Of a stretch of 64,000 nucleotides of DNA, positions 753 to 30,173 are shown piece after piece. The DNA comes from Clostridiales bacterium. GTDB taxonomy: Bacteria > Bacillota > Clostridia > Lachnospirales > CAG-274. How positions within the stretch are numbered: the stretch's first letter is position 1; each line of letters begins with the position of its first letter. A program made the position numbers and the translations under genes. The stretch lies in the NCBI GenBank assembly GCA_021200955.1, contig JAJQFU010000111.1, forward strand, positions 214 through 64,213. Direction: 5' to 3'. The notes beneath the pieces were generated by a model that saw only the letters and a list, made by a program, of their open reading frames with translations, made no database searches and was not told the origin of the DNA.

Positions 753-753
753 T

Positions 754-7869: not shown

Positions 7870-7870
7870 C

Positions 7871-9938: not shown

Positions 9939-10025
9939 ATCTTCACCTCCGTCTGTTGATATTATATCACCATTATCAGAGATAAGTCAATAAAAATCAT
10001 AGAATATTATATTTTATTTGAGTTA

Positions 10026-10349: not shown

Positions 10350-10640
10350 ATAATCACCACCATCTTATTTTATTTGATAATAACTCTGCATAATTTTTAT
10401 ATGCAGTATTTTATAACATTGGAGAGGATTTCTCTAATATACGGATTTAGTCAAATAAACATCATCTCTTATACCTTAATGTTATCACAAAGCAAATTAC
10501 TAATCAATCAAAAAAATGCAGAAATATGACCGTTTTAAGTGTTAATGAAAATTTAGATAAAAAAGAATTAGATTTTTTGTGAAAAAATATTGCACGAAAA
10601 ATATTGCAATGGAGGCGTAACTGTGGTAACATATAAACGT

Positions 10641-10649
10641 GGGGGGGGG
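10641..10649. repeat. G9 homopolymer tract in the 5' region of the AAA_21 ATPase gene
   Basis: Nine consecutive G lie 39 nt upstream of the ATG at 10688, in an otherwise AT-rich intergenic region. Confidence 0.9.
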
Positions 10650-10687
10650 TAGACTGTAACAAAAATCAGAGAGGGAGGTTTGATGAA

Positions 10688-11962
10688 ATGCTTATTGAAG
10701 TAAGAATAAAAAACTGCTTTTCATTTTATGATAAGGTTACTTTTTCTATGAAAGCGGATATGCGAAACAAAAAGTTTGCTTCAAACGTATATAGAGAAAA
10801 CAATTTCAATATTCTTAAGACATCGGGAATTTACGGAGCCAACAATGCCGGAAAGACCTGTCTTGTGAAGTGTATCAGATCAATAAAGAATGCTTTGCTG
10901 AATAGAAATATTGGAGTACAATGTAATATTTTCCACGAGAAAAGCATATGTGAGTTAGGAATATCTTTTTTATCTGATGGTCGTGAATATTCATATGATT
11001 TTTGGTATGACTGTAACAAAAAGGAATATCCTTATGAAAAGTTTTCGGAAATAAAAAAAGACGGCTATAATAATGAATCAGAGGTAAAGTGGCTGTTGAA
11101 GGATAATATAAAATCTCAATATTATTATAAAGACAGCAGTGAAAAAAGAATTGCGGATATGATTCCTATGATAGCTAACAACAGCTTGCTTATATATATG
11201 ATGGATGTTAGCAAGTTTGAGCTTTTGGCTGAGATGAAAAAAATCGTTACCGAATTTGCATCTAAAATCGACATTGTTAGTATGTATAATATACCCATAA
11301 AAAAGACTATAGATTTAATGAAGAACAAAAACAATCTGAAAAACAAGGTAGATGACTTCATTAGGAATGCAGATATTTATATGGATAATTTTGAATATAT
11401 AGGTGACGATAAACTCTTTTTGGCTGTTGACAGTAAAATTGATGAAAAAGAGATTGATGAAAAGGTTCTTGACATTCCGGAGCAGATTGTGGACCAGCTT
11501 AGGCTTGTGTCTGTATATAAGGGTATTCCTGTTTCTTCTATGTTTTATGATTCTACCGGAACAAAGAAAATTATAGCCCTTGCGAGCTATGTAATTGAAA
11601 GCTTGGAGCAGGGAAGAATCTTGATTGTAGACGAATTAGACAGCAGTATTCATTTTAAATTGACAAGAGCTGTTGTGGCTATGTTTAATAATGAGCTTAA
11701 TATTAATGCCCAGCTGATATTTACCGTTCATGATATTAATTTGATGGATTGTAAAAAGTTATTCAGAAAAGAGCAGATATGGTTTGTCCACAAGGATGAA
11801 GAGGGTGTATATCTTTATTCACTGGCGGAGTTTACCGCTAATGACGGAGTACGTGACACAACGGATATAAAAGAAAAATATAGAAGGGGAGTGTTGGGGG
11901 CGGTTCCTAATCCCGATTTGATAAAGACATTGTTGGCTATCAGAGGAAATAAATCTGAGTAA
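10688..11962 (+). CDS. AAA_21/ABC-type ATPase (abortive-infection-like), orphan
   Basis: Walker A is GANNAGKTC. The distal Walker B and signature region is ILIVDELDSSIHFKL...IFTVHD. An RBS GAGGGAGG lies upstream. No nuclease partner gene is adjacent. Confidence 0.7.
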   Translation: MLIEVRIKNCFSFYDKVTFSMKADMRNKKFASNVYRENNFNILKTSGIYGANNAGKTCLVKCIRSIKNALLNRNIGVQCNIFHEKSICELGISFLSDGREYSYDFWYDCNKKEYPYEKFSEIKKDGYNNESEVKWLLKDNIKSQYYYKDSSEKRIADMIPMIANNSLLIYMMDVSKFELLAEMKKIVTEFASKIDIVSMYNIPIKKTIDLMKNKNNLKNKVDDFIRNADIYMDNFEYIGDDKLFLAVDSKIDEKEIDEKVLDIPEQIVDQLRLVSVYKGIPVSSMFYDSTGTKKIIALASYVIESLEQGRILIVDELDSSIHFKLTRAVVAMFNNELNINAQLIFTVHDINLMDCKKLFRKEQIWFVHKDEEGVYLYSLAEFTANDGVRDTTDIKEKYRRGVLGAVPNPDLIKTLLAIRGNKSE

Positions 11963-12013
11963 CAGATAGCCTTATGTATTTTCAAGATATTGAAAACCAA
12001 ATTAAGCTATTAA

Positions 12014-12042
12014 TTTAGGGCGAGGTATCTACTCGCCCTAAA
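12014..12042. terminator. bidirectional hairpin terminator between convergent genes
   Basis: TTTAGGGCGAG-GTATCTA-CTCGCCCTAAA lies between the stops at 11962 (+) and 12059 (-). Confidence 0.6.
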
Positions 12043-12058
12043 TATATCTATTATTATG

Positions 12059-13741
12059 TTATTTAAGAAGAACTCGGCATAGTTTTTTATAGAATGCTAT
12101 GCCATAACATTTTATATCTGTGATACCCATATTGGAGAGGGAATGCTCATAGTTTTTATCATCAATTTGTTTTAAAGCCTTTTCGGCATATTTGTTTAAA
12201 GTTTCCTCGTTATCGGCGTATTTTATTTCAATTATAAATCCGTATTTATCCTCAGGTCTGACAACTCTTATGTCGGGAAAGCCTTTGCCGCTTTCTTGAT
12301 TGGATTCTACGTTCCAATAGAAAGGACGGCTATTGAGTATACCCAATAACAAACCGTGATAGAAATTTTCTTTTTTTTCTTCGGGAACTTGAGAATCACG
12401 AATGCTAACTGACCTTCTAAGCAAAGTATTCAGATGATTTTCTATTGTTGCTGCATCACCTTTCGGGAAAGCATTGCAGAAAAGGTTAAGGCTATCCGTA
12501 TCACTGTAAACCTTTGTGTCAAACCAAGTTGTAATCTGGTCTTCAAACAGATTTTTGATTTCTCGGTTAGGTATTGTAAGCTCGTAAAATCCATTTTCAT
12601 CTATATTATGACAGGTGAGATAGCCCGTTGTAAAAAGAATACCCCAAAGGTTGTCTACTGTGCTGTTAATATCGGGATAGGTTAAATCAGTTCGAATCCT
12701 CTTCTTTACACTTTCTCCGGCAATCAGCTTTTCGATTTCATCAAGTGTTTTTCTGTCGGCTTTGTCGGCAAAGTTACGGATAATTCCATTCTCGCTTACA
12801 TTAGCCCAGAAGTTTTGAGGAGCCTTGTTTGAGTTGGTGAGCAGATAATCACAGTAGTTTATAATGTCCCATGGACAGTAAAGACTTGTGGAGCCGATTT
12901 GATAGCCGTCATACCAATCTTTAGCTGTATCGTAGTATTTGCTTAACTCATAGGTATCAAGAAGCTCTTTGACTTCATCATCTGTAAAGCCGAACCACTC
13001 GTCACATCTTTCATCAACAAGTGAAAACACCTTGGGATTATTAAGGTCGGAAAAAATACTTTCCTTAGAAACTCGCAGACAGCCTGTAAGAACTCCGAAA
13101 TGAAGAAATTCGTTTGACTTAAGGGCATATCCGAAAAGTTGTCTGATTAACAAAACCATTTTCTTGTAATAGCCGTTTTCGTGTGCTTTTTGCAAAGGAG
13201 CATCATATTCGTCAATCAGTATAATAACTCTTTTATCATATTCCTTGTAGAGTATTCTGGACATAAGCTTCAGACTGCTTGCTAAATTTCCTATGCCGCC
13301 GCTTAAATTTAACAGGTTAAGTTTGTCACGGTTATTAAGTTTGGCACTGTCTTGTAAATAGTCGAATCTTTCTGCTTCGGCTTTGATTACATCCCATAAA
13401 TTCTCTTTAGCTTCTTCAAAGGTGTCTCCGCTGACCTCTTTGAGAGAAACAGCTATAACCGGATATTGTCCCATATGCTTTTCACACAGTTTAGTTTCTT
13501 TGGAAATATCCAAGCCATCAAACAGACTTTTATCGCTTCCGATTTCAAAGAAGTTTTTGAGCATACTCATATTAAGGGTTTTGCCGAAGCGTCTGGGTCG
13601 GGTGAAAAGATTTACTTCGCCCTTGTTTTCAAGCAATTCTTTTATAAAACCTGTCTTATCAATATAATATAAATTTTGTGTTCGTGCTTTTGTAAAATCA
13701 TCTGTTCCTACAGGCAAAACCTTTCTTTTCATCTCACTCAC
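12059..13741 (-). CDS. AAA-ATPase-like plus PD-(D/E)XK (PDDEXK_9) family protein
   Basis: The N-terminus is LPVGTDDF...YYIDKTGFIKELL...FTRPRRFGKTLNMSML. The C-terminus GFPDIRVV...GFIIEIKYA has a D..E.K nuclease-like motif. Confidence 0.75.
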   Translation of the reverse strand: MSEMKRKVLPVGTDDFTKARTQNLYYIDKTGFIKELLENKGEVNLFTRPRRFGKTLNMSMLKNFFEIGSDKSLFDGLDISKETKLCEKHMGQYPVIAVSLKEVSGDTFEEAKENLWDVIKAEAERFDYLQDSAKLNNRDKLNLLNLSGGIGNLASSLKLMSRILYKEYDKRVIILIDEYDAPLQKAHENGYYKKMVLLIRQLFGYALKSNEFLHFGVLTGCLRVSKESIFSDLNNPKVFSLVDERCDEWFGFTDDEVKELLDTYELSKYYDTAKDWYDGYQIGSTSLYCPWDIINYCDYLLTNSNKAPQNFWANVSENGIIRNFADKADRKTLDEIEKLIAGESVKKRIRTDLTYPDINSTVDNLWGILFTTGYLTCHNIDENGFYELTIPNREIKNLFEDQITTWFDTKVYSDTDSLNLFCNAFPKGDAATIENHLNTLLRRSVSIRDSQVPEEKKENFYHGLLLGILNSRPFYWNVESNQESGKGFPDIRVVRPEDKYGFIIEIKYADNEETLNKYAEKALKQIDDKNYEHSLSNMGITDIKCYGIAFYKKLCRVLLK

Positions 13742-14020
13742 TCCCGGTTAAAATCAAATACGAATCATCTCTTATATCTTAATGTTACCACAAAGCAAAT
13801 GACTAATCAAGCAAAAAAATACACTGCTTTGCGGCAAAATAAAAGGGCATCTGAATGCCGTTTTGAGTGCCGTTACAGTGCCGTTATTGCCGTTGTAATG
13901 CCGTTGAAATTTTTAAAAATGAAGCAAAATCCCTACATTTTTATACCGAAAAACACCAAAAACTACCTAAAAATGACCGTTTTTAACATTGAAAAAAGAT
14001 ATAGAAGGCTTCGGGACGGA

Positions 14021-14099: not shown

Positions 14100-14426
14100 T
14101 TTACAATTTTTGGAAACCTCGAAAATAACGGAATTGGGAACAGTTTTGGGAACACTTTCTTTTAAATTGCTCCCAATGCTTCAAATTTAGCTAAATTAAT
14201 AAAGTATTTTGGGAGAAATTATACAGCGGCACAAGCTTTAATTTGAACTTGGCCGCTGTGATTTTTTCTTTGATATATTTTTACGCTAATAAGAAATTAC
14301 AAATAAACGATTTTCTATTATAAATGCTTTCGTTCATGTCGCTGTAATTGTCTTTAGCTTCTCGAGATATTTAAAACTAACTGCTGCCTCGTTTATCAAA
14401 ATGAAGGTAAAATAAGTTTATATTTA

Positions 14427-14762
14427 TTACTGTCTGCATTTCAAGCTGTTTCCCCACAGAGCAAGTTCTGATAAAATGGGAATCAGAGAACGTACCGAAT
14501 CGGTTATTTCATATTCAACCCGAATAGGAACCTCCATATATTCGCTTCTTTTTACAAGTCCATCCTGTTCGAGCTCTTTTAATGACTTGGCAAGCATTGT
14601 GTTGGAGATGCCTCCCATTTTTCGTTTGAGATCATTATATCTGGTTGCGCCGTCATTTGACAGTGAACACAAAATAGAAATTTTCCATCTTCCGCCTATG
14701 GCATTCATAGCCTTTTGCAAAGGACAAAGCGTTGTACAAGGGCAAATATGTTCTTTCGCCAT
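14427..14762 (-). CDS. HxlR-family winged-helix transcriptional regulator
   Basis: CPLQKAMNAIGGRWKISIL...GISNTMLAKSLKELEQDGLVKR is a typical HxlR signature. The gene is divergent from the flavodoxin-like gene. Confidence 0.85.
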   Translation of the reverse strand: MAKEHICPCTTLCPLQKAMNAIGGRWKISILCSLSNDGATRYNDLKRKMGGISNTMLAKSLKELEQDGLVKRSEYMEVPIRVEYEITDSVRSLIPILSELALWGNSLKCRQ

Positions 14763-14929
14763 TTTATTTCCTCCTAAATAAGTTTTTTGTTACTTACTCC
14801 GCAAAAATTGCGTAGTTGACATAAATATATCTCACTATTATAATAGTATTATAGCAGATACCAAATTAAGAGTAAAGCATTTTTTAGGAGTAAAAGCTAA
14901 ATACAATATTAATATTGGAGGAGATTACT

Positions 14930-15346
14930 GTGAAAAAATCAAAAGCGGCTGTACGCTATTTATCTAAATCAGGCAATACAAAAAAACTGGCAGATGCAAT
15001 TGGGAAAGCTGTCGGCGTTAAGGCAGAACAGATTCCCACACCGGTCACCGGCAAGGTGGATATTCTGTTTTTGGGTGCTTCTGTTTACTGGGGTGGCATA
15101 AGCTCTGAGGTTAAGAAATATATACAGACGCTGGATAAAGATAAGGTCGGAAAGGTTGTAGTATTTTCCACATCGGCAATGGCAGAAAGGGCATTTCCTC
15201 AAATTCAAAAATTATTGCAGGACAAGGGCATACCTGTTGAAAGTAAAAATTTTTATTGCAGGGGAGAATTTACAGTGCTTCATAAAGGGCATCCGAACCA
15301 AGATGATTTAAAGGCTGCAGAAAAGTTTGCGGCAGGGATTATTTAA
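14930..15346 (+). CDS. flavodoxin-like fold protein
   Basis: It has YLSKSGNTKKLA and VDILFLGASVYWG motifs. I prefer the GTG at 14930, which is 7 nt after GGAGGA, over the TTG at 14915. Confidence 0.6.
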   Translation: MKKSKAAVRYLSKSGNTKKLADAIGKAVGVKAEQIPTPVTGKVDILFLGASVYWGGISSEVKKYIQTLDKDKVGKVVVFSTSAMAERAFPQIQKLLQDKGIPVESKNFYCRGEFTVLHKGHPNQDDLKAAEKFAAGII

Positions 15347-15361
15347 ATAAAGAATACAGCT

Positions 15362-16702
15362 ATGGATCATTTTGTAAATATACTTGTTAAATTATTTGTC
15401 TTTTTATCACGCTTTGCCACCGTTTTATCCAAAATAGGCTTAACAGAATACAGAAGCTTTGGGAATTTTGAGAAAGACCCAAAGCTTTACATATTGTTAG
15501 TGGGATATAACGGTGCAGGAAACACCGGTGCAGATATACGAACAGCGGAAATCGTGAAGCAGCTTACGCAGCGGATCGGAAAAGAAAATTTGCAAATTTC
15601 CGTTATGACACTTGATAAGAAAAATCTTCGCTGTTATTTTGATGCCGATGTAAGGCTTATTCATTTCAGTTCTGTGTTTTTTATTGATGTATTTAGGGCA
15701 TGCTGTGCAAATCAGGCTGTTATATTGTGCGAGGGTTCAACTCTTAAAAGTAAGTTTGCCAATGCGCTTACCTTGTATTTTTGCGAAGCGGAGGGAATTA
15801 TGAAAGCTCAGAATAAGCCCTGTATAGCCTACGGTTCGGAAGCAGGCGACATGGACTTGTTTTTAGAACGCACTGTCAAAAAACTCTGTTCAGATACTTA
15901 TTTTATTGCCCGAACTCAAAATTCATTGAAACGTATACAAGCCTTGGGATTGAAAGGTCATTTAGGAACCGATGCCGCTTGGAAATTTGACAGTACCTCT
16001 CATACTGAGTGGGCAGCCGAACAGCTTAGGCAGTCGGGTTGGGACAGTGAAAAACCTCTTTTGGGCATTGCTCCGATTAACCCATTTTGGTGGCCTGTGA
16101 AGCCTTCTCTTTTAAGGTGGCTTAAATGTAAAATTACCGGTGATAAGTCCTTGCAGTTTCAATTATGGTATTTTTTCAGTGACTCTAAGCAGCGACAGCG
16201 GCAGTTTGAAAATTATTTGAGTGGAATTGCTTCGGCGTTAAATGAATTTGCGGCAAAATATTCCTGCCATACTGTAATTTTGGGAATGGAGCGGCTTGAC
16301 GCAGATGCCTGTGAGAGACTGAAGGAAAAGCTTAAAGTTTCGACTTCTGTTTTTTTATCGTCAGACTATAATGGTTTTGAAATGGCTGCTTTATTAAGGC
16401 AGCTGTCAATGCTTGTTACTTCAAGATACCATGCACAGGTACTTTCTATGGAAACAGGTGTTCCGAGCATTGCAGTTTCTATGGATGAGCGTTTGGACAA
16501 TATTATGGAGGAAACGGATATGTATCGGCATCAGCTTCTTCACACAAATGACAATGAGCTTGCCGTAAAGCTTGCGCAGGCTTTGGAGTATATACAGTCA
16601 AACCGAGAAAATATACAATACAAAATCGGGCAAAGGCTTGATGATTATAAAAACAGACTTGATGAAATGGGAGATTTTTTGGCAGAAAAGCTTTTTTCAT
16701 AA
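15362..16702 (+). CDS. polysaccharide pyruvyl transferase family protein
   Basis: The C-terminal segment TSRYHAQVLSMETGVPSIAVSMDERL resembles the conserved R-x-H / G-x-P block of PS_pyruv_trans proteins. Confidence 0.55.
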   Translation: MDHFVNILVKLFVFLSRFATVLSKIGLTEYRSFGNFEKDPKLYILLVGYNGAGNTGADIRTAEIVKQLTQRIGKENLQISVMTLDKKNLRCYFDADVRLIHFSSVFFIDVFRACCANQAVILCEGSTLKSKFANALTLYFCEAEGIMKAQNKPCIAYGSEAGDMDLFLERTVKKLCSDTYFIARTQNSLKRIQALGLKGHLGTDAAWKFDSTSHTEWAAEQLRQSGWDSEKPLLGIAPINPFWWPVKPSLLRWLKCKITGDKSLQFQLWYFFSDSKQRQRQFENYLSGIASALNEFAAKYSCHTVILGMERLDADACERLKEKLKVSTSVFLSSDYNGFEMAALLRQLSMLVTSRYHAQVLSMETGVPSIAVSMDERLDNIMEETDMYRHQLLHTNDNELAVKLAQALEYIQSNRENIQYKIGQRLDDYKNRLDEMGDFLAEKLFS

Positions 16703-16725
16703 AAGGTACGGCGGCAGGGAGGTGA

Positions 16726-19494
16726 CAGCTTACGTATAATATCTTTATTACCGGTACAACCGGATTTTTGGGAACGGAAATAATTTCAGAAATTATGAAG
16801 ACAACCGATGCAGTTGTCTGCGGCTTAGTCAGAGCCGCTTCATATTCCGAAGCTGTAGCTGTACTGTTAAATCTTTGGTATAGGCGGCCTGAACTTAAAG
16901 ACAATATCGGCAGCCGAATAATACCCGTAACGGGGGACATTGCCGAAACAAATTTAGGTATGTCAAATGCCGACCATGAAAGGCTCATATACAGTACCGA
17001 TTATATAATTCACACTGCCGCATTAACAGGCATAAATCACAGCCGTGAACAGTTTTGGAGCGTAAACGTAACAGGCACAAAGAATGTTTTGAATTTTGCC
17101 GAAGAAATACAGTCCGACCATACTTTAAAACGCTTTGCATACATATCCACATCTTATACGGCAGGAAAAAGAAAAGGTTTAATTAAAGAGGATTTTCCGA
17201 TAAACAAAGGCTTTTCAAGTTTTTATGAGGAAAGCAAATTTGAAGGGGAGATGCTTGCCTTAAAGGCGATGAAGCGGTTTCCTGTTTCGATTTTTCGCCC
17301 GGGACAAATAGTGGGAGATTCGAGAATAGGCTATGTAAAAAGCTTCAATACTCTCTACTATCCTTTGAAACTGTATTTAAAAGGGCAGATTAACATTTTT
17401 CCCATAAGAAAATCAATGCGTATTAATATGATACCCGTTGACTATGCTGCCCGTGCTGTTGTCCGGATAACTCTCAGTGACTGTGCCGAGAGGAAAATAT
17501 TTCACTTAACCGCTCCTTATTCTGCACAGCCCACCGCAGAGGAGCTTATCTGCTTTGTAAGAATGTGGGCAGAGAAAAATCTTAATATACTTTTGAAAAA
17601 GCCTTTGTTTTTGCCTGTTCCCTTTCTTGAAAAAATCGGAGCATGCTATAATCTGTCAAAACATAAAAGCTTTAAAAAGAATACTTTTGCAAATATGGTC
17701 TCTTTAGCCCCTTATTTTTCCGAGAATAAAATATTCGATACCGTCAATACGGAAAGCTTTATGGGAGAATACAGCTTGGATTTAAGCTCATATCTGCCGA
17801 AGCTTTTGACCTATGCCGCAGACAGAAGCTTTCTTAATGACAACGGAAGAACAGTATTTGAACAGATAATGTTTTTCCTTAACAGACGTAATGTACCTGT
17901 TAAATATTATGATGTGACAGCTGAGGGCATAGCCGAAAGAAATGCTTCATATGTCAGTGAGCAAATTAAACTTGCCTTAAAGGCTCTTCAGGCTCTCGGC
18001 ATAGGTTTGGGCAGCAAAGTTGCTGTCAGCGGAATTAACAGCGTATTATACTTTGTTTTGGACACTGCCATAGGCTTGTCGGGTGAAGTCAGTGTTCCAT
18101 TGTATTATACAACTCCCGCCGATGAATTAGATGAGTTGCTTAATAAAAGCGGAGCACAATGCTTTTTTGTGGGAGATATACGCATTTTATCCCATATAAG
18201 TCAAATGAAATTTAATGGAAATATAATTTCATTTGCGGAAAATGCTGCTCTTTCCTATGATTCACGTTTAATATCGTGGGAGCAGTTTCTCTCACTCGGA
18301 AAAGACCGCAGTATAATACCTGTGAAGGTTTCCTATAATGATACGGCAACACTCCGCTACACCTCCGGAACAACAGGCAGTTCCAAAGCCGTAACCTTTA
18401 CTCACGCTCAGCTTAGGTGGATGGCTGAAACCATGGCTTCTCTTCTCAGCTTCAAAAGCCGAATAAAGCCTGCGGTTTATTTGTCATTTTTGCCTATGAG
18501 CCATGTTGTAGAGGGGATTTTGGGGGCTTATACTCCTTATTATCTCGGTTCGCCTGTATCACTTTATTTTCTCAATGATTTTAACAGGCTTGCGGGAATA
18601 TTGCCGAAGGTTCGTCCCACAATTTTCTTCTCCGTTCCCAGATTTTATGAAAAGCTTTGGGACAGATTAGCTGAAACCGGATTCGGAAAGCTTTATATTT
18701 CTGCCGAAAATCCGCTTATAAAGAGTACACTGGGGCATATAATTAAAAAAATTCTTCTTAAGAAAGCCGGTTTGGACAGGTGCTCTCAGCTTATAGTAGG
18801 CTCTGCTCCGGTCAGTCAAAGGCTTTTGGAAAATTTCAGAGAGTTAGGCATAGAAATTCACAATGCCTACGGCTTAACCGAAGCCCCTCTGATTACACTG
18901 AACCGACAGGGAGAAAATGACATTTCCACAGTGGGAACACCTCTGCCCGAAACCAATGTAATACTTGCAGATGACGGCGAAATAATGGTAAGCGGCCCTC
19001 AGGTCGCCGGGGAGTATAACGGAAGTAATTCAGCCTTTCTGCATACGGGAGACTTGGGAGACTTTACGGAAAAAGGTTATCTTCAGATTATAGGACGAAA
19101 AAAAGAAATTTTGATTAACTCCTATGGGAAAAATATAAATTTGCAAAAGGTCGAAACTTTTTTAAGGGATATTCCCGAAATAAGCGAGGCTGTACTGATA
19201 GGGGAGAAAAAGCCCTATTGTACCGCATTGCTTTGGCAGGAAAACAACTCTGAACTTGATGAAAAAACACTGACCGCCGCTGTCAGAGCCGTCAATGAAA
19301 AGCTTTCACATCCCGAGCAAATAAAAAGGTATGCCCTTATGGCTGACCCGTTGAAAATTTCCTCCGGAGAGCTTACACCTAATTTGAAAATCCGCCGAAA
19401 TAATATAGCTGAAATTCATAAGCAGACAATTGACGGTCTTTATGCTGCCAAAGCAATATCTGCAGGGAACGTAATTTTTATAGGAGTGCTGTAA
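16726..19494 (+). CDS. fusion protein: N-terminal NAD-binding thioester/fatty-acyl reductase domain plus C-terminal AMP-dependent (acyl-CoA) synthetase
   Basis: The Rossmann motif ITGTTGFLG, the YEESK catalytic pair and RPGQIVGD indicate an NAD_binding_4-type reductase. The AMP-binding motifs are LRYTSGTTGSSKAV, AYGLTE, TGDLG and GRKKE. The frame is open from 16726, but the first canonical start (TTG 16768) lies inside the Rossmann motif, so the start is uncertain. Confidence 0.75.
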   Translation, partial: QLTYNIFITGTTGFLGTEIISEIMKTTDAVVCGLVRAASYSEAVAVLLNLWYRRPELKDNIGSRIIPVTGDIAETNLGMSNADHERLIYSTDYIIHTAALTGINHSREQFWSVNVTGTKNVLNFAEEIQSDHTLKRFAYISTSYTAGKRKGLIKEDFPINKGFSSFYEESKFEGEMLALKAMKRFPVSIFRPGQIVGDSRIGYVKSFNTLYYPLKLYLKGQINIFPIRKSMRINMIPVDYAARAVVRITLSDCAERKIFHLTAPYSAQPTAEELICFVRMWAEKNLNILLKKPLFLPVPFLEKIGACYNLSKHKSFKKNTFANMVSLAPYFSENKIFDTVNTESFMGEYSLDLSSYLPKLLTYAADRSFLNDNGRTVFEQIMFFLNRRNVPVKYYDVTAEGIAERNASYVSEQIKLALKALQALGIGLGSKVAVSGINSVLYFVLDTAIGLSGEVSVPLYYTTPADELDELLNKSGAQCFFVGDIRILSHISQMKFNGNIISFAENAALSYDSRLISWEQFLSLGKDRSIIPVKVSYNDTATLRYTSGTTGSSKAVTFTHAQLRWMAETMASLLSFKSRIKPAVYLSFLPMSHVVEGILGAYTPYYLGSPVSLYFLNDFNRLAGILPKVRPTIFFSVPRFYEKLWDRLAETGFGKLYISAENPLIKSTLGHIIKKILLKKAGLDRCSQLIVGSAPVSQRLLENFRELGIEIHNAYGLTEAPLITLNRQGENDISTVGTPLPETNVILADDGEIMVSGPQVAGEYNGSNSAFLHTGDLGDFTEKGYLQIIGRKKEILINSYGKNINLQKVETFLRDIPEISEAVLIGEKKPYCTALLWQENNSELDEKTLTAAVRAVNEKLSHPEQIKRYALMADPLKISSGELTPNLKIRRNNIAEIHKQTIDGLYAAKAISAGNVIFIGVL

Positions 19495-20036
19495 TGAACA
19501 AATTTATTTATAAAATATTGTCCAGAAGGCTTGGGGCATATTTCGAAATAAGAATACTTATGCGGAAAACTGCCGAAGTTTTCGGAGTAAGACCGCCTAA
19601 AACCTGCAGAGCTTCCGGCGAAGAGAAGCTGAAGCTTTATGCCCGGTTTACGGCAAGTGAAGTTATGAGGTTAATTCAAAGCGGTTATGATATTAACCAT
19701 GTGCAGCAAAAGCTGTTTAATATGGCATATAATCTGGGGAGCAGTCTGCGGCAACGGCTGAAGCCAAAAAGCAAACAGGAATGTTTTTCCGTAATTAAAC
19801 TGCTTTATAAAAATATAGGAATAGTGATAAATGAGGAATCTTTGGGAAAATTCTGTATAGAAGAATGTTTTTTCAGTGCATATTATACACCTGAAACCTG
19901 CGCTGTTATTTCCGCTGCAGATAAAGGCATTTTTGCGGGAATTTATAACGGCAAAAGGCTTAGCTTCAGTCGGCGTATTACAGAAGGGTATAATGAATGC
20001 TTGGCAAATCTTACTGACAAAAGAGCGGGCGGTTAA
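19494..20036 (+). CDS. hypothetical Cys-rich protein (possibly ATC-hydrolase-like)
   Basis: 180-aa ORF whose ATG overlaps the upstream stop (TAATG). It has conserved-looking Cys residues (CIEECFF, CAVISAAD, NECLANL). The family assignment is tentative. Confidence 0.35.
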   Translation: MNKFIYKILSRRLGAYFEIRILMRKTAEVFGVRPPKTCRASGEEKLKLYARFTASEVMRLIQSGYDINHVQQKLFNMAYNLGSSLRQRLKPKSKQECFSVIKLLYKNIGIVINEESLGKFCIEECFFSAYYTPETCAVISAADKGIFAGIYNGKRLSFSRRITEGYNECLANLTDKRAGG

Positions 20037-20037
20037 T

Positions 20038-21339
20038 ATGAAAAAAGCAATTGTAATAGGGTCAGGTGCAGGAGGGGCTATGGCGGCAAAGGAGCTTCAG
20101 GGAGATTTTAAGGTAACAATATTGGAATCTGGAACTGAATTTAAGCCCTTCGCCTTTAATATCCGCAAGCTTTCCAAGCTGAGAAAAACAGGGCTGTTTC
20201 TTGATGAACGAATGATTTCAATGCTCTTTCCGGCTATGCGTGTCCGAAAGGCTTCTTCAGGTATGGTGCTGGTCAACGGCATCTGAACAGGAGGTTCAAC
20301 CGCACTTTCCACAGGCAGCGCTCTTAGATGTGATGACAGCCTTATAAAACTGGGCATCGATTTGGACAAAGAATTTGAGGAACTTTCCCGAGAAATACCT
20401 CTGTCTTATGACCATAAACAATATTGGTCACCTACAACGAAAGCTCTCTATAATGTGTGTGAGCAGTTAGGCTTTAAGCCTAAGCCTGCCGGAAAAATGA
20501 TTGACTTTGAACTCTGCGTTCACTGCGGCCGTTGTGTACTCGGCTGCCCGACAGGGGCAAAATGGGACAGCCGCCGCTTACTGTCGAAAAGCATTGCCAA
20601 AGGAGCGGTTTTAAAAACAGGCTGCAAGGTGACAAAGCTGGGCATAGACCGAAAAAACAAAAAAGTGCATACCGTTTATGTAAAGGAAAAGGGAAAGGGA
20701 AAGAAAAAGACCTACAGCGCAGATTTAATCATATTAGCCGCCGGAGGACTGAACACGCCTGTTATTTTAAACCGTTCCGGCATAAGCTGTGAAAATACTC
20801 TGTTTGCAGATCCGCTGCTTTGTGTTGCCGCACCCTACAAAAAAGCAGAACAGGACAGACATTTTCCCATGCCCTTTCTTATGCAGAAAAACGGCTATAT
20901 GCTGTCGCCTTATATGGATTATTTAAGCTTTTTCTTCAATAAGGCTTGGCGGCTGCCATCCGATAACATATTAAGCATAATGATAAAGCTTTCGGATGCC
21001 TCCTTCGGCTCAAGCCTCAGCCGAAAGACCGAAAAAGAACTGACTGCTGCAGATAAGGAAAGACTGAAAGCCGGTGTTTCCGATTGTAAAGCAATTCTCG
21101 GCAAAATGGGTATTGCCGAAAAGGATATGTTCTTGGGAACAGTCAATGCCGGTCACCCCGGCGGAATGATGCCATTGACTTCCGAAGAATCAAGAAGCCT
21201 TCACAACAATCGTCTGCCTGAAAACCTCTACATAGCCGATGCTTCAATATTACCTAATTCTATGGGAAATCCACCTATTTGGACGATCCTCGCCCTGTCA
21301 AAACGCATAGCAAAGGTATGCAAAGCAGCTTTTAACTGA
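20038..21339 (+). CDS. FAD-dependent (GMC-like) oxidoreductase with a ferredoxin-type Cys cluster, interrupted by an in-frame TGA at 20284-20286
   Basis: The N-terminus is MKKAIVIGSGAGGAMAAKEL (dinucleotide-binding). CVHCGRCVLGCP is a 4Fe-4S motif. The C-terminus is YIADASILPNSMGNPP. The two ORF-track pieces, 20038-20286 and 20287/20362-21339, are in the same frame and are separated only by a TGA. Confidence 0.65.
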
Positions 21340-21375
21340 CAAGATAATAGCAGGTTTTTAAATATAAACATAAAA

Positions 21376-21415
21376 GCAGATAACATATAAAATTGTAGTA
21401 TGTTACCTGCTTTTT
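21376..21415 (+). terminator. rho-independent terminator
   Basis: GCAGATAACATA-N11-TATGTTACCTGC is followed by TTTTT. Confidence 0.6.
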
Positions 21416-21444
21416 GACCTGCAGAAAGGTTGTTTTGTGGTGTA

Positions 21445-22104
21445 TTATATGAAAACGAAAATTCCATTATGGTCGGATAATTCTTTGTTTTCGTTCCATT
21501 CTTTGACTTGCGGTTCTGCGTTTTTTATAAAGCTTTGGGATATAGCTATATGGTCTATACATTCACGTTTGCCGCCTGTCAGAAGCCGGATTTTGTTTTC
21601 TTCAAATGACTTAAGCAATGTATTTCTGCCGAAGGTTGTGAAATAGTAGTTGTCGGCAAAGCTGCAGTTGAAGTCTCCTATAATGCAGAGATTTTTTCCG
21701 GCATCGGCAATATTTTTAAAGTCAGCGGTTTGCTTCAGTAAATCGTCTTTAAAGGTTGGATGACGATTTCCGTATATTCCTATTATTGTCGCATATATAG
21801 TTAGATTGCCTTTTTCCGTTTCAAGCTCAATACAGATGGAGGTATATTTATCGTAGGTTTCATATTGCTGAATACATGGATAATTTGTAAAGATAGAAAC
21901 CCTGTTTTCTGTTGGCTTGTAAAGAGAAGGGTTAATTTCATAAGGTGACGGAGTTTCAAAACAGTATTTATAATTAGGCTGTACTTGTTTATCTGTTTCT
22001 GTAAGGACAAGAATATCTGCTTTTATCTGTTCACAAGCATGAAGAATTTTGTCAATATCTTTTTTATGTTTCAGTCTTTCAATGTTCCATGTAGCAATAA
22101 TCAT
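21445..22104 (-). CDS. endonuclease/exonuclease/phosphatase (EEP) family protein
   Basis: The N-terminus is MIIATWNIERL. LVLTE, IIGDFN and IDHIAIS motifs, typical of the EEP fold, are present. Confidence 0.75.
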   Translation of the reverse strand: MIIATWNIERLKHKKDIDKILHACEQIKADILVLTETDKQVQPNYKYCFETPSPYEINPSLYKPTENRVSIFTNYPCIQQYETYDKYTSICIELETEKGNLTIYATIIGIYGNRHPTFKDDLLKQTADFKNIADAGKNLCIIGDFNCSFADNYYFTTFGRNTLLKSFEENKIRLLTGGKRECIDHIAISQSFIKNAEPQVKEWNENKELSDHNGIFVFI

Positions 22105-22175: not shown

Positions 22176-23405
22176 TTAACTGAGAAGCCAGTCGATTAAA
22201 TTCAGAGACTTGATGCCGTTGTAGGAGGTAATGTAGTTTCTGTCCATAGACAATATGATTTTTTCGTAGTTATCCCTTATCATATTCAAGGGGCGAAGTT
22301 CACGCTGACGGGTTTCCTCGGACTGCATACTTTCGGTTACCTGAATATAAATTTTGTCATTTGGTTTTTCGGCAACGAAGTCAACTTCTGTTTCGCCAAC
22401 TTTGCCAATGTATACTCTGTAGTCACGGCGGATAAGCTCAAGAAAAACAATGTTTTCGAGTATATGTCCTCTGTCGGCATCTCTGTAGCCCAGCAGCATA
22501 TTTCTGAAACCAAGGTCGATAATATAATTCTTTTCGAGTGTTTTTAGAAGCTGTTTTCCTTTTATATCATAACGGGAAACGGGATAAAAAACAAAGGCAC
22601 TGTGAAGCATTGAAATGTATCTTTCCACAGTTTTGCCTGCTATGTTTTTTCCTTTGCCTGTTTGTATATTGCCTTCGCTTGATAGAAAGTTTCCAATACT
22701 ATTGGGCGAAGTAATGCTTCCTATGTTTGAGCATAAAAACATAACTATTTTTTGCAGCGTGTTTTGCTCTGCGCCTTTGTTCCTCTGCAGAATATCTTTT
22801 AATACTACAGTTGAGTAAATTCCCTCTAAGGCTTGGTTGCTTCTTGCTTCGTTAAACCTATATTCTCTGAGAATAGGCATACCACCGAACTGTAAATATT
22901 TCTGAAATTTTTCCTCAAGAGTTACGGCAGTTTCAAAGCTGTAAAATGTCAAAAACTCCTTAAAAGAAAGGGGCAGCATAGGTATCTCGACATATCTGCC
23001 GGATAACAGGGTTGAAAATTCAGAGGAAAGCAGGTAGGCGTTTGAACCTGTAATGTATATATCCACATCATAATCAAGCCGAAAGGATTCAATTGCCTTT
23101 TCCCAATGCTCTATGGTCTGAGGTTCATCAAATATAAGATATGTTTTTCCGTCTTTGGCAATACGCTCACTTACATAGTCATAAAACTCTAAGTAGTTAT
23201 TTAAATCTCTGTATTTCAATGATTCCAAGTTCATATGAATAATATTGCTATCGGGAACACCATTTTCGGTCAAATAACCGTGGAACAAATCGAGCAGTGA
23301 AGATTTGCCGCACCTGCGAATACCGGTAACAATTTTTATTAAATCTATATCCCTGTTTTGTATAAGCTGTTTTAAATATTCCGGTCTGTTAATAAGCTCA
23401 GCCAT
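22176..23405 (-). CDS. AAA-family ATPase with a DUF4143-type C-terminal domain (second paralog)
   Basis: Walker A is GIRRCGKSS and Walker B is YLIFDEPQ. I chose the start at the ATG 8 nt downstream of AAGGAG (MAELINRPEY), which trims 15 codons from the ORF track. Confidence 0.8.
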   Translation of the reverse strand: MAELINRPEYLKQLIQNRDIDLIKIVTGIRRCGKSSLLDLFHGYLTENGVPDSNIIHMNLESLKYRDLNNYLEFYDYVSERIAKDGKTYLIFDEPQTIEHWEKAIESFRLDYDVDIYITGSNAYLLSSEFSTLLSGRYVEIPMLPLSFKEFLTFYSFETAVTLEEKFQKYLQFGGMPILREYRFNEARSNQALEGIYSTVVLKDILQRNKGAEQNTLQKIVMFLCSNIGSITSPNSIGNFLSSEGNIQTGKGKNIAGKTVERYISMLHSAFVFYPVSRYDIKGKQLLKTLEKNYIIDLGFRNMLLGYRDADRGHILENIVFLELIRRDYRVYIGKVGETEVDFVAEKPNDKIYIQVTESMQSEETRQRELRPLNMIRDNYEKIILSMDRNYITSYNGIKSLNLIDWLLS

Positions 23406-23865
23406 ATTCATCGCTCCTTTTTTCTTTATTATATCACAGAAATAGTTCATGTCAATAATATTTCAGACTTATATCTAAGAAATTTTATAATTTCTTGATG
23501 TTTTAGTCATATAAATAAAATAAATTAAGCGACTATTAAAGTTCGGCAGCTTAGATGAGTACTTAAAAAAGTTGATAAAATTTATTTGCTGTTATACCGG
23601 TTTACCATAAATTGTGCGGACTTGTTTACTTCTTCAATGAAAGCATTATAGGCAGTTATTTTTTATGCTGTATTATCATTGGTTATACACTTATTCCACG
23701 TATTATGATTCAAATACAATTCATCTGTTGTCTTTAAAAAAGATATTCTTTCATTTACTTTATATTCCTTATATAAACAAAAACACATTTTTTGTTCAAA
23801 ACTTCGCAGTGTTGGTGTATACTTTTCATTACAGTATATACAAGTTATCTCTATACGTACACCTT

Positions 23866-25826: not shown

Positions 25827-25877
25827 ACAGAATAATTTCTATGTCCGATACTGTTGAAAAGCTTATGCTGGAATATA

Positions 25878-25930
25878 ACCAACAAAATAAGTCCTACGAT
25901 TTAAGCAGTGGGGACTTACTTTGTTGGTTA
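25878..25930 (+). mobile_element. partial copy (3' end) of the ~140-nt structured insertion element
   Basis: AAGTCC...GGGGACTTACTTTGTTGGTTA matches the third hairpin and the terminal CTTTGTTGGTTA of the full copies. Confidence 0.55.
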
Positions 25931-26198
25931 AAATACTATTCAAGGTACAATGGTGTGGTCGAAGGACGATACTATAAACACCATAGAGAACCCTCAATGG
26001 AAATCAGAGGCAGCGTACGTACTAAATTGGAAGAGGACAGCAATATTGATTTTAATTTAAAAACGTTTCTAAATGCAAAGGCTACTATGGCAGACAAAGA
26101 AGGCGTATATTATTCATGGATAACAGACCTTCCGTGTGAAAAGATAATTTTGCTTTCAGCCACAGCCAACGGAAAAGTTTATACCGAGTTCTGTCAAA

Positions 26199-26338
26199 GA
26201 CTATGCGCATTTTTGCCTTGCAAAAATACTTATGACCAACGGCATTTATCAATGCCTCAATCAGTAGGGGTTATAACCCATACTGATTAAAAAGTAAGTT
26301 CTTGCCCCCTAAAGGGCGAGAACTTACTTTGTTGGTCA
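26199..26338 (+). mobile_element. ~140-nt structured insertion element, copy 1 (MITE/PATE-like)
   Basis: It starts GACTATGCGCAT and ends CTTTGTTGGTCA. It has three hairpins: GGCAT..ATGCC, AATCAGTA..TACTGATT and AGTAAGTTCT..AGAACTTACT. The left flank is GTCAAA. Confidence 0.7.
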
Positions 26339-26805
26339 AAAACCGGAAAATAAAAAATTATTCAATAAGTGAAGTACGCTACAAGGGTTCAATATACCAA
26401 TTAACAAAATATTCCTTCAGCAGAGCTTGGATAGAACAAAATAAGGGTTTGTATGATGATGTGACAGATGTTTTCAACAAATGTACAAAAATTGAGTTTA
26501 TGAGATTTAACGAGAAAAACGAACTGCATTTCGGAAATACAGAAGGAAAAGACGGGTATAGTGATAAGAATTTGGCAATATTCGGAACTCCCCATGTCAA
26601 TGACCGTGTTTATAAGCTGCTTGCCGCATCAGTGGACTACGATATGAAGTTAGTAAACAGAAGCAGCCTAAACCATAAAATCATTAGATACGGAAGCTAC
26701 GAGTTTAAATTCTACACTTATGACGACGAGTTTCTGAAGGACATACAAATTTACTACATATCCAATGAGCTCGAACAGTCAGTGGGACGGGCCAGACTGG
26801 TCAAA

Positions 26806-26976
26806 GACTATGCGCATATTTGTTTTTAACAACAAAGACTATGCGCATATTTGTTTTTAACAAATATGCTTATGCCCAACGGCGTTTATCAACGCCCCAT
26901 TCAGTAGTGGTTTGAAACCTCTACTGAATGGAGAGTAAGCACCCCACCTAAGAGGCGGGGCTTACTCTGTTGGTTA
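26806..26976 (+). mobile_element. structured insertion element, copy 2 (171 nt, with a 31-bp tandem duplication of the left end)
   Basis: It has the same termini (GACTATGCGCAT ... CTCTGTTGGTTA). The hairpin stems carry compensatory changes relative to copy 1. The left-end 31 nt are repeated, at 26806 and 26837. Confidence 0.7.
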
Positions 26977-27261
26977 AATAACGACAACAATGTCTATGTA
27001 TTTGCCAACTTTCCCGTAAAGCAGGCAGTATTCGAAACGGACTTTAACAGTATGGCTAAGCATGAAAGTGCCGAGGGCTTCTTCGGTGATGACGAAGACA
27101 ATTTTCCTTCTGAAATTCAAAATGCAGATTAAGCTGAAGCAGACTTAAACACCTATTTGTTGTTTTACATCAAATGTTTTACATCAGACAATAAAGATGG
27201 TGCAAATCTTTGCAAGGCTGAACAATATAAGTGAAAATGGAAAAAGATACGGAGAGGGACA

Positions 27262-27447
27262 CTAAACCCCTCTCGATTTGCTGTTCAAATAATTTATAAC
27301 GGCTTCCTTGGTTATCTTCCAATTGCGGCCGTCACGATACCCTACAAGAGCCTTAGACCTAAGCAGCTTATATAAGGTATTTCTGCCTATTAAAAGTATT
27401 TCGCAGACATCCTCAGGCTTTAAAACCTCTCCGTAATTTTCAAGCAT
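27262..27447 (-). CDS. excisionase-family helix-turn-helix DNA-binding protein
   Basis: 61-aa protein. LKPEDVCEILLIGRNTLYKLLRS...I.K.AV..YL resembles the Xis/MerR-like HTH_17 proteins of integrative elements. Confidence 0.6.
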   Translation of the reverse strand: MLENYGEVLKPEDVCEILLIGRNTLYKLLRSKALVGYRDGRNWKITKEAVINYLNSKSRGV

Positions 27448-27787
27448 TTATAAGACCTCCTGTCTCAATTGATTTATATTGATGTTTGCTTGATAATAAT
27501 TAAGAATTGCAGTATAAAAATTAATTGAGACAGAAAGGTAGGAGAGGAGATTTGCATTTTGGACTTAATTATAAGGTTATTTCAAATTACCAAGGATGAT
27601 ATTAAATCCCGGCAGAAGATCACTGTAAGAATATAAGGATATGAGAGACGAGAATATAGATGTACTGATAGACTATATTAATAAAAACGATTTAACGACA
27701 TATAAAATTAGATTATGACATTACAAAATTTACAGAAAGGATTAATGCTTATATATTCATCTGAATTATAAGTATTTGGTGTAAAAA

Positions 27788-28487
27788 ATGAACGAAATTT
27801 ATTGTCCGGTATATTTTAGATATTTAGGAAATGATTATGATGCAAAAACAAACTTTTCTGAAAACCATGATATTAATTATATAGAGGAAAGGATTGAGCG
27901 TATTTTAGATCCCGAAAAAACAGATCAATCTTTATTCGGGACAAGCGGAATGGCAGAAACATATTCTACCAAGAGGCTGGCTCTGCAGTTTTATGACGTA
28001 CAGGCGGAATTTAACCAACAAAGGAAGACCCCGCCTCTTAGTCGGTGGGGACTTACTTTCCATTCGGTAGGAGTATAAACTCCTACCGAATGGGGCGTTG
28101 TTTAACGCCGTTGGTTATAAGTATTTTTTTTGCGTCAGCAAAAAATGCGCATAGTCCTTGACTATGGGATATGATCGGAAAATTGTTCATATGATAGTAT
28201 TTTTCAGAGATGAAGCGTGTGGTATAGGTGATTTTATGGCAGCTTATATGGGAAGAAGAATTGCCGATTATATTGGTCATAGATTTCAAACGATATTTGC
28301 CGTACATACGAATACGGAAAATATTCACATACACTTTATAATTAACCCAGTCAGCTACAGAGATGGCTCTCTTTACAAGACTACTACAACCAACTTAAAA
28401 CGCTATTATGAAATAATTAATCAAATGTATGGAGAAATATATCATGTTGAATCAATCGGAGGTTATGGTTACTGCATAGAAAAGTAA
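27788..28487 (+). pseudogene. MobA/VirD2-type relaxase N-terminal domain, interrupted by an inverted copy of the insertion element and truncated
   Basis: IVHMIVFF and the His-rich block FAVHTNTENIHIHFIINPVS match the relaxase HxDxxxHxH region. The segments 27788-28011 and 28157-28487 join in frame when 28012-28156 is removed. Confidence 0.55.
28012..28156 (-). mobile_element. structured insertion element, copy 3 (145 nt, inverted)
   Basis: The reverse complement starts GACTATGCGCAT and ends CTTTGTTGGTTA. Hairpin 2 is a perfect 14-bp stem, CATTCGGTAGGAGT / ACTCCTACCGAATG. Confidence 0.7.
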
Positions 28488-28950: not shown

Positions 28951-29190
28951 GAGAGAGGGGCAATAAACCCCTCTTGATTTTCTGTTCAAGTAATTTTATA
29001 AAAGACTCATTAGTTATCTTCTATTTGCAAATGTCATGATACCGTACAAGAAACTTAGACCTAAGCCGCTTATATAAGAGGTTTATGACTATAAGCAGTA
29101 TTTCGCAGATATACTTAGGCTTTTAAACATCTCTGTAATTTTCAAGTATTTATAAGACATCCTGTTGCAATTGATTTATATGATGTTGAA
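28951..29190 (-). pseudogene. degenerate second copy of the excisionase gene and its flanks
   Basis: About 240 bp are alignable to 27251-27490, for example GAGAGGGG..AAACCCCTCT, TTAGACCTAAGC.GCTTATATAAG and TTTCGCAGA.AT. Stops and indels destroy the ORF. Confidence 0.6.
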
Positions 29191-29287: not shown

Positions 29288-30173
29288 CTAATTTATACTG
29301 AGTTCTGCCTTCAGGCGGCGGAGAAATTCTTTTGAGGCTTTTGAAAAGACCTGATATTTTTTCCACACAATGCAAAGACCGGCTTCCATTTTGGGAGTTA
29401 GGGGACGGAAGCAAAGGTCGCTTTCTCCTGTTATGTTGAGGATTTTGTCAAGACAGATTAAATAGCCTATGTTGTTTCTGACAAAATGAGAAACATTATA
29501 GATTAAATCCCCTGTTACCACTACATCGGGCTTTACTTCATCTGCTTTAAGCCAGGACAGCATTTTGCTGTTTGAAGCGGCTTGATGGGAAAGAATTAAG
29601 GGCTTTCCCCATAAATCTTCGGCACAAATTTCCGGTTTTTCGGCTAATGGATCGTCTTTTCTCATTAAAACTCCCCATGTGTCGCTTATGGAAAGCTTTA
29701 AATAATTATATTTTTCTATATCAACATCGCCAATGAGAAGCCCGAAATCGATAAGTCCTCTGTCAAGCCTTTCCATTACTCTTTCTGCATCGCCGCTGTA
29801 AATGTGATAATGAATTAGAGGGTTGTTCCTTTTGAAGCGCCTTTGCGGCTTTGGCGAAAAACGAAACAGCATCTGATTCGCCGCAGCCTATATATATTTC
29901 CCCCGTTATGTTTTTGTCCGAGTCGGAAAGCTCGGCTTTTGTCTTTTCAAACAAATCCAATATTTCCTCTGCGCGCTTTCGCAGAAGCATACCTTCGTCG
30001 GTTAAGGTGATTTTTTTGCCCCCTCTTATAAGAAGCTGCTTTCCTATCTCGTTTTCAAGGTCTTTCAGCTGTCTTGAAAGGGGCGGCTGTGTCATATGCA
30101 GAACCTCTGCCGCTCCGGTTATGCTTTCTTCTCTTGCTACAGTTAAAAAATATTTTAAAACTCTTATGTCCAT
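29288..30173 (-). pseudogene. LysR-family transcriptional regulator with a frameshift
   Basis: The N-terminal HTH, MDIRVLKYFLTVAREESITGAAEVLHMTQPPLSRQLKDLE (ORF 29763-30173), and the substrate-binding domain (ORF 29288-29872) lie in different frames. They switch near an A4/T4 run at about 29828-29845. Confidence 0.75.

Follow-up and report, generated by a model that had tools for sequence, protein, structure and literature searches.

A family of short, protein-less hairpin repeats lies in a 64,000-nucleotide (nt) stretch of DNA from an uncultured Clostridiales bacterium (assembly GCA_021200955.1, contig JAJQFU010000111.1, positions 214 to 64,213; below, the window). These repeats are very probably palindrome-associated transposable elements (PATEs), that is, miniature derivatives of an IS200/IS605-family insertion sequence that encode no protein. 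The window carries three full copies and one short copy, at about the places given by a first-pass annotation of the sequence, and at least nine further copies are present in two related Clostridiales metagenome-assembled genomes (MAGs). The first-pass annotation had also proposed an IS200/IS605-type PATE, and this class can be retained on the strength of sequenced empty sites, a pair of target and terminal motifs, a strand-specific fold and a matching left-end palindrome; the ends, the target, the strand and the number of hairpins all had to be redrawn. The copies in the window, the transposon-adjacent motif (TAM) that precedes each of them on the top strand, and the genes they occupy are as follows.

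26193 to 26335, minus strand: copy w1, 143 nt, in the helicase-like gene, ends set by an empty site; its top strand reads 5'-CCAACAAAG...GCGCATAGTCTTTGAC-3'.
26336 to 26340, minus strand: TAM of w1, TTTGA on the top strand, directly 5' of the element.
26800 to 26973, minus strand: copy w2, 174 nt, of which 143 nt are the element proper and 31 nt come from a tandem duplication of its right end, in the helicase-like gene, ends set by an empty site.
26974 to 26978, minus strand: TAM of w2, TTTAA on the top strand.
28015 to 28162, plus strand: copy w3, 148 nt, in the relaxase-like remnant, placed by its motifs only.
28010 to 28014, plus strand: TAM of w3, TTTAA.
About 25874 to 25927, minus strand: truncated copy with CCAAC, one hairpin and then GTTGGTTATA; it lacks both inner hairpins and all of the right end.
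25928 to 25932, minus strand: TAM of the truncated copy, TTTAA.
25928 to 27132, plus strand: target gene 1, with three insertions; it is the C-terminal third of a DEAD-like helicase gene (831 residues) from a mobilizable element.
27788 to 28487, plus strand: target gene 2, a short relaxase-like remnant with the motif HTNTENIHIHFIINP, hit once.
17672 to 17676, minus strand: an unoccupied TTTAA target, whose orthologous site in a related MAG is filled by a 147-nt copy.

The boundaries of the elements were read from empty alleles, which were found through contigs encoding the 61-residue helix-turn-helix (HTH) protein of the window. Seven such contigs carry an intact 831-residue helicase gene with 93 to 98% nucleotide identity to the window. 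The empty site of w1 (contigs L018 to L023) reads GAGTTCT^TCAAAAACCGG, which leaves no ambiguity in the boundaries, and that of w2 reads CCAGACTG^TTAAATAA, with an ambiguity of 1 nt. A third empty site lies inside the window itself, where the sequence at 17672-17676 runs uninterrupted as TTCTTTTTAA^AGCTTTTATG; the MAG 'Clostridiales bacterium BH.3_2' has its 147-nt copy at this point, and the filled site (contig L008) reads ...TTCTTTTTAA/CCAAC...TTTGAC/ACCTTTTATG, with slashes at the element ends. Read base by base, none of the three sites shows a duplicated or lost base (flanks 93 to 98% identical), which bears out the earlier proposal of insertion without target-site duplication. Once w1 and w2 are cut out at their true ends, the rebuilt helicase matches the intact protein without any difference at the two junctions; removal of w1, for instance, gives ...GKVYTEFFKNRKIKNY..., exactly as in the intact L018 protein. 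The ends of w3 were set by its TTTAA/CCAAC and TTGAC/ motifs, as no empty allele was found: among the relaxase homologues searched, the only database relative of the remnant (P0003) carries the same insertion.

On the strand used by the first-pass annotation, the inserted DNA begins GTCAAAGACTATGCGCAT (also written GTCAAAGACTATG) and ends TTGTTGG. The active strand is the reverse of the one drawn there, and on this TAM strand the layout is 5'-TTTAA/CCAACAAAG...ATGCGCATAGTCTTTGAC/-3'. At 12 independent sites the 5' flank is TTTAA in nine, TATAA in two and TTTGA in one, always on the same side and strand, and the 3' flank shows no conservation except a preference for A. On the TAM strand the elements end in ...GTCTTTGAC. 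The transposon-encoded terminal motif (TEM) is TTGAC, which resembles the TAM, TTTAA, and differs from it at positions 3 and 5. Terminal inverted repeats are absent, as the 5' end CCAACAAAGTAAG is unrelated to the reverse complement of the 3' end, GTCAAAGACTATG. The earlier boundaries therefore have to be moved, with the true elements (by empty sites, and for w3 by motif) extending 6 nt further on the annotated left and 3 nt less on the right, a net gain of 3 nt. The flank GTCAA(A/G) that had been taken for the target is the element's own right-end terminus, the true target being TTTAA on the opposite strand at the other end. Removing the segments as first drawn does reopen the reading frames, because their lengths of 140, 171 and 145 nt share the remainder of the true lengths after division by three, but each such reconstruction held one extra codon. 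This had been visible as a 1-residue gap at both junctions relative to an intact 460-residue homologue (56% identity) before the empty sites ruled the earlier boundaries out. Two further models, a GTCAA target with an element ending in GGTYAWA and a 2-3-bp AA(A) duplication, were likewise discarded on the unambiguous empty sites of w1 and L008.

Folded on the top strand, the element consists of TTTAA/CCAAC, a left hairpin, a 34-nt hairpin, a 16-nt hairpin, GTTGG, TCATAA, an A/T-rich hairpin and GCATAGTCTTTGAC/. The CCAAC pairs with GTTGG as a 5-bp closing stem, which gives a four-way junction enclosing three hairpins, and the fourth hairpin follows after it; the earlier description had counted three hairpins in all. 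The left hairpin has an outer stem of AAAGTAAGT paired with ACTTACTTT and a tip of CCCCGCC-TCTTA-GGCGG-T-GGG, and the right-end hairpin is GTATTTTTTGC-GTCA-GCAAAAAATGC. Measured from the ends, the left hairpin begins after 5 nt (14 nt to its GC-rich tip) and the right hairpin stops 14 nt short of the other end. In w3 these parts fall as follows, all on the plus strand.

28015-28019: CCAAC.
28020-28059: left-end hairpin.
28060-28093: middle hairpin.
28094-28109: short hairpin.
28110-28114: GTTGG.
28121-28148: right-end hairpin.
28158-28162: terminal TTGAC.

Folding z-scores range from -9.5 to -11 for the full copies and are about -10 on either strand. The pairing was assessed on 13 copies aligned on their top strand, in which 95.9% of the cells are paired, as against 92.1% on the other strand. 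Thirteen pairs change on both sides, compared with 4.4 ± 1.5 in shuffled alignments (none of 500 reaches this number) and 0 to 5 in slid controls, so the compensatory changes quoted in the first-pass annotation, which had called for such a covariance check, are real. The covariation comes from all four hairpins; the 5-bp closing stem is invariant and thus uninformative. The G.T cells number 34 on the TAM strand versus nine on the opposite strand; of those 34, nine hinge on how the left hairpin is put in register and vanish if its tip is drawn with a bulged T. As paralogous copies are 68 to 95% identical and orthologous ones 93 to 99%, most of the divergence predates insertion and arose in transposing lineages. 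We infer that the compensatory nature of the substitutions is explained by filtering for a foldable top strand during transposition.

These properties correspond to the published description of PATEs (PMC3119063). Terminal inverted repeats are absent, palindromes lie near both termini, the target is not duplicated at the three empty sites, and the copies are too short to hold a transposase (143 to 148 nt, and 208 nt in one copy with a loop insertion). The left-end palindrome is related to those of IS605-type transposons, while no relative was found for the right-end palindrome. The elements also share the hallmarks of the IS200/IS605 family, namely insertion directly 3' of a 5-nt TAM on one strand, a TEM resembling this TAM, and a fold that favours the top strand. 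The same relation at positions 3 and 5 holds between the TAM TTTAT and the TEM TTCAC of ISGst2 (PMC10055086), and TTTAA is the TAM used by the TnpB of ISAam1 (PMC11224200). With a bulged T, the left-end palindrome AAGTCCCCGCCTCT-TAGGCGGTGGG aligns both with the right-end hairpin of ISAam1 and with the left end of a tnpB element on plasmid pCY360 of Butyrivibrio proteoclasticus. The published scaffold of ISAam1 ends in ...GAGAAGCCCCCACCTCTAAGCGAAGCGTAGGTGGTGGGAGCATGTCAC, which matches the tip of the element's left end including the bulged T and a compensatory A-T to G-C change, and a blastn search with this scaffold recovers the same palindrome, preceded by TTTAA, just upstream of tnpB on pCY360.

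IS608 recognizes its cleavage site through a guide of 4 nt that lies 5' of the palindrome, with contacts c1:g2, c2:g1 and c4:g4 (PMC3201880). The consensus left guide of the family, AAGT, fits TTxA with the third base free (TTAA, TTGA), and in our own reading of the sequences the rule also fits the ends of ISAam1, ISDra2 and the Butyrivibrio element. Within the family, w2, w3 and one of the copies in BH.3_2 (L001b) do not follow it. By analogy with these systems, a Y1 (HUH) transposase TnpA encoded elsewhere in the genome would bind the near-terminal palindromes of the folded top strand. It would cut after TTTAA and after the terminal TTGAC, releasing a single-stranded circle and resealing the donor exactly, and the circle would then be pasted 3' of another TTTAA in single-stranded DNA. 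In the case of w1, the resealed donor joint would be GAGTTCT-TCAAAAACC and the circle junction ...GTCTTTGAC/CCAACAAAG....

Several observations weigh against this assignment. In agreement with the first-pass annotation, which had reported no transposase gene in the window, no tnpA or tnpB was found among the 40 window open reading frames (ORFs) scanned, nor among the ORFs near the other copies. The search for more copies and for a parent, suggested at the same time, yielded copies in two MAGs and no autonomous element with these ends in genome contigs, viral contigs, JGI metagenomes, plasmids or phages. The A/T-rich right-end hairpin is unlike the left-end hairpin, and the right end lacks a CAxG (IS608-type) guide for the terminal TGAC. 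AAGT also precedes the right hairpin, and if it is read as a guide, the predicted cut falls one base before the observed one. The left palindrome lies 14 nt from the cut, as opposed to 19 nt in IS608 and the Butyrivibrio element, and the TATAA found at two copies breaks one guide pair. Finally, conservation extends to the two middle hairpins and the CCAAC/GTTGG stem, parts for which TnpA should have no use. A candidate interpretation of the inner hairpin region as a remnant of a tnpB C terminus (NGALINAVGHK against DRDVNAAINI) was dropped for lack of Pfam support.

Comparison with known systems places the family among these elements while setting it apart in sequence. The PATEs of Haloquadratum walsbyi (PMC3119063) and the PATE-like elements of Geobacillus stearothermophilus (PMC10055086) share with it the lack of terminal inverted repeats and of target duplication, the near-terminal palindromes related to IS605-type transposons, a 4-6-nt targeting oligonucleotide at one end, divergent copies, strain-specific insertions and a tendency to sit in other mobile elements. 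The present elements differ in forming a separate sequence family with no known parent, in having left and right palindromes unlike each other, and in that their first 5 nt pair with the internal GTTGG to form the four-way junction. ISAam1 of Anoxybacillus amylolyticus and the pCY360 element (NC_014389.1, tnpB at 69161-70291) have in common with the family the TTTAA target, a GC-rich imperfect palindrome with one bulged pyrimidine, CCCC(A/G)CCTCT...GG(T/C)GG(T/C)GGG, and a putative guide tetranucleotide 5' of the palindrome that fits a TTxA site (in the family, in its consensus). The tail of ISAam1 before its right end, GCATGTCAC, is also loosely similar to GCATAGTCTTTGAC of the family. Unlike the family, both encode TnpB and measure about 1.3 to 1.5 kb, the loop of their hairpin has 10 nt more, their right-end hairpins are different, and their terminal motif is TCAC rather than TGAC; at the left end of the pCY360 element the palindrome begins 19 nt from the cut, against 14 nt in the family. 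In the pCY360 element, which carries tnpB only, the left palindrome is ISAam1-like and the right one ISDra2-like (CTCCGACTT-CTAC-AAGTCGGAG, ending in TAGTTCAC; L025 2980-3040 and 4330-4372). Genuine IS605-family elements can thus have two dissimilar ends.

IS608 of Helicobacter pylori (PMC3201880) resembles the family in its top-strand-only structure, its insertion 3' of a short motif, its scarless donor joint, the extrahelical base in the palindrome and, as far as the consensus left end of the family goes, the putative reading of the cleavage site by 4 nt 5' of the palindrome. It differs in its target (TTAC) and terminal motif (TCAA), in having left and right palindromes that are alike, in carrying both tnpA and tnpB, and in its geometry, with 19 nt and 10 nt from palindrome to cut where the family has 14 nt and 14 to 16 nt. 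The palindromic elements of Rickettsia offer another comparison, which applies to one copy only, the stop-free in-frame insert of L008. In general, insertions of the family are not in frame and mostly fall outside genes.

Other explanations of the same elements have been weighed. One of these keeps the PATE but, in a reading we regard as unlikely, makes its four-hairpin body a gene for a guide-RNA (omega RNA or reRNA) scaffold as well, with an RNA that would read across TTGAC into the flank and a TnpB acting in trans that would cut empty sites (TTTAA plus flank), which would allow homing. PATEs 'often encode omega RNAs' acted on in trans (Meers et al., PMC10055086), the right-end terminus is exactly where the TnpB scaffolds of ISAam1, ISDra2 and ISYmu1 stop, with the terminal hairpin inside them, and 143 nt falls within the size range of such scaffolds. 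Moreover, the covariation reaches the inner hairpins, and G.U-type pairs favour the strand that would be transcribed. However, the element has no Rfam match at the gathering score and no relevant one at E<=10, whether to the IS605-orfB and HEARO motifs or to any other family, and no tnpB or iscB is present in the window. A convincing internal promoter is also missing, the two top-strand TTGATA-18-TATTTT matches being no better than shuffled background. Apart from the palindrome, the element shows no likeness to the ISAam1 scaffold; known scaffolds overlap the 3' end of tnpB, and translations of the element have no Pfam match. (The permissive Rfam search returned spurious miRNA-type hairpins only.) Related to this reading is the slim chance that the element is a stand-alone 'orphan' omega RNA gene that recruits a trans-acting TnpB-type nuclease to its own empty sites or, alternatively, that the CCAAC/GTTGG stem juxtaposes the TTTAA/left-end junction with the right-end hairpin for excision with one palindrome per synapse. 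If either were true, the element would be a minimal self-homing or self-synapsing hitch-hiker and not a plain ends-only deletion derivative.

It is improbable that the hairpin element is moved by another single-strand HUH enzyme, be it the local relaxase (which would make it a mini-element resembling an origin of transfer), an IS91-type Y2 transposase or a RAYT, the transposase associated with repetitive extragenic palindromes (REPs). Six of the 12 sites do lie in mobilizable modules (the window helicase three times and its relaxase once; the relaxase and the region upstream of a Rep-like gene in L001), HUH relaxases, too, nick DNA a few bases 3' of a hairpin and rejoin it, and the right-end hairpin is followed by TGCGC, which we take to be loosely like MOBQ nic regions. 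Against this, the elements destroy the relaxase genes they occupy, half of the copies sit in ordinary chromosomal spacers, and the left-end palindrome together with TTTAA matches IS605-family elements specifically. IS91, for its part, targets GTTC/CTTG, and REPs measure 20 to 40 nt. An ordinary miniature inverted-repeat transposable element (MITE), or a cargo-less element of a site-specific recombinase or of the IS110 type, would likewise be small, non-coding and multicopy, and the A-rich flanking bases first resembled a 2-3-bp duplication; such an origin is very improbable given the lack of terminal inverted repeats, the absence of target duplication at the empty sites, and a target conserved on its 5' side only, when IS110-type and recombinase sites span both sides. 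The idea of an excisable RNA element, raised in the first-pass annotation, has gained no support. A mini-intron that moves or removes itself at the RNA level and restores the mRNA of the interrupted gene could account for the restored reading frames and for the fact that the unit, on the strand first drawn, follows a T in 8 of 11 copies and has G as its last base in every case. It is scarcely credible, since 143 nt is far below the size of any known self-splicing intron, and neither an Rfam match, a group I or II catalytic core nor a fixed homing site was found (the 12 sites differ). Most copies are intergenic, those within genes lie in either orientation (w3 versus the relaxase copy of L001), the 5' flanks share no sequence for pairing with an internal guide, the presence/absence differences are at the DNA level, and the host genes are otherwise truncated pseudogenes.

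All copies of the PATE family recovered here are miniature. A pattern scan of one genome per species gave eight more loci, seven in the MAG BH.3_2 and one in 'Eubacterium sp. U_127185', and a covariance model added a ninth extra copy with a 62-nt insertion in a hairpin tip. This copy (L001 4090-4297) accounts for the 208-nt length and lies inside a 641-residue relaxase gene, with the insert at the tip of the middle hairpin; the insert folds into three small hairpins of its own, and one of them (TTTTGCGTAAGCAAAA) is similar to the right-end hairpin of the element. Orthologs of w2 and w3 are present in another assembly (L017 and L013, respectively), with flanks 93 to 98% identical. Besides the genome of the window, the assemblies with copies are JAJPZT01, JAJBVU01, CBDLUG01 (GCA_965306305.1) and CBDLKD01 (GCA_965303585.1). 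The 31-bp tandem duplication reported for the second copy is exact (26802-26832 and 26833-26863, 100% identical), and the L017 ortholog has the insertion without the duplication. Particular to w2 in this comparison, the duplication creates two terminal motifs, and a loop-closing C-G to T-A double change is seen in the right-end hairpin between w2 (26833-26863) and L017 (797-827). The window belongs to a close relative of BH.3_2, as its positions 14308-21913 are syntenic with L008 (JAJPZT010000007.1, a BH.3_2 contig) at 94 to 95% nucleotide identity, and the two genomes differ in the presence or absence of element copies.

No similar sequence was found in Rfam, nor by blastn in 72,556 plasmid or 50,697 phage records, and no closely related copies were found in IMG/VR viral contigs or in JGI metagenomes, the latter queried with a right-end 22-mer. 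Thirteen viral-contig matches to a terminal 18-mer were rejected as chance matches within phage genes that lack the hairpin. A six-frame peptide query for ORFs reading through copies also gave no match, probably because the query was artificial (X-linked). With a left-end pattern, the JGI metagenomes returned two loci with a solitary, different hairpin unit (L027 586-618 and L028 1694-1726). This unit, TTTAA/CCAAC-TAGCTAAGT-CCCCCGCCT...AGGCGGTGGG-TTAAA, adjoins an ABC-ATPase gene; it agrees with the family in its target motif, its opening 5 nt and the type of its palindrome, and is without the other hairpins and the right end. The elements form a new sequence family of a known kind (PATE), which was found only in a narrow group of uncultured gut-type Clostridiales.

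Mobile elements are reported to insert preferentially into one another (PMC3119063), and the four insertions of the window all fall within 2.3 kb of a decayed integrative mobilizable element. Its parts are an integrase fragment, the truncated helicase, an HTH_17 gene and the relaxase-like remnant. Homology to the intact helicase gene of L018 to L022 starts at about 25929, with the integrase fragment upstream, and the short copy sits at the boundary of the deletion that removed the first ~500 helicase codons. The partial copy previously placed at 25878-25930 is this one, and it retains the closing stem and one hairpin only. Searching plasmids by tblastn with both target proteins gave no match. 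Two copies of BH.3_2 occupy another mobilizable module (L001), one inside the relaxase gene and one upstream of a Rep-like gene. The clustering of the four insertions is probably due to such DNA often being single-stranded in transfer or rolling-circle replication, and probably also to the absence of selection against hits in genes that are already dispensable.

Other copies are found in ordinary spacers, namely between dnaA and dnaN (L004 2260-2405), upstream of feoAB, after ftsH and after an M29 peptidase gene; in Firmicutes, the dnaA-dnaN spacer is the usual place of the replication origin. The 147-nt copy of L008 (4491-4637) is in frame and free of stops inside an otherwise intact 923-residue NAD_binding_4/AMP-binding gene, and may be translated as a 49-residue insert; the window ortholog (16768-19494) is without the copy.

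Several other features of the window were noted. The HTH_17 gene and its upstream region are present twice, at 27252-27479 and 28953-29181, with the second copy 81 to 89% identical and no longer an ORF, which suggests that two mobilizable elements of one kind have left remnants in tandem. At 29288-30173 a LysR-family regulator is split into two overlapping ORFs (the HTH part and the substrate-binding part) and is likely a frameshift pseudogene. The regions 1-14000 and 22176-23450 look like a mobile or defence-type island, with ORFs for an HNH-like protein (754-1320), two large products (1337-4726 and 4746-6650), a WYL protein (6663-7622), a resolvase (7871-8542), two AAA_14+DUF4143 ATPases (8646-9938 and 22176-23450), an AbiEii-like AAA_21 protein (10688-11962) and an AAA-ATPase_like+PDDEXK_9 protein (12059-13741).

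Taken as PATEs, these elements provide a compact family in uncultured gut-type Clostridiales, with well-defined limits and with both occupied and empty sites sequenced. They indicate that IS605-type single-strand transposition has recently been active in these bacteria, where it inactivates genes of mobilizable elements. For genome annotation, they account for frameshifted helicase and relaxase 'pseudogenes' and for the 49-residue in-frame insert in a fatty-acyl reductase/ligase-type gene. For the study of TnpA and TnpB, they offer a very small natural substrate (143 nt, with a TTTAA target), and their covarying inner hairpins could be used to ask whether PATEs carry working guide RNAs.

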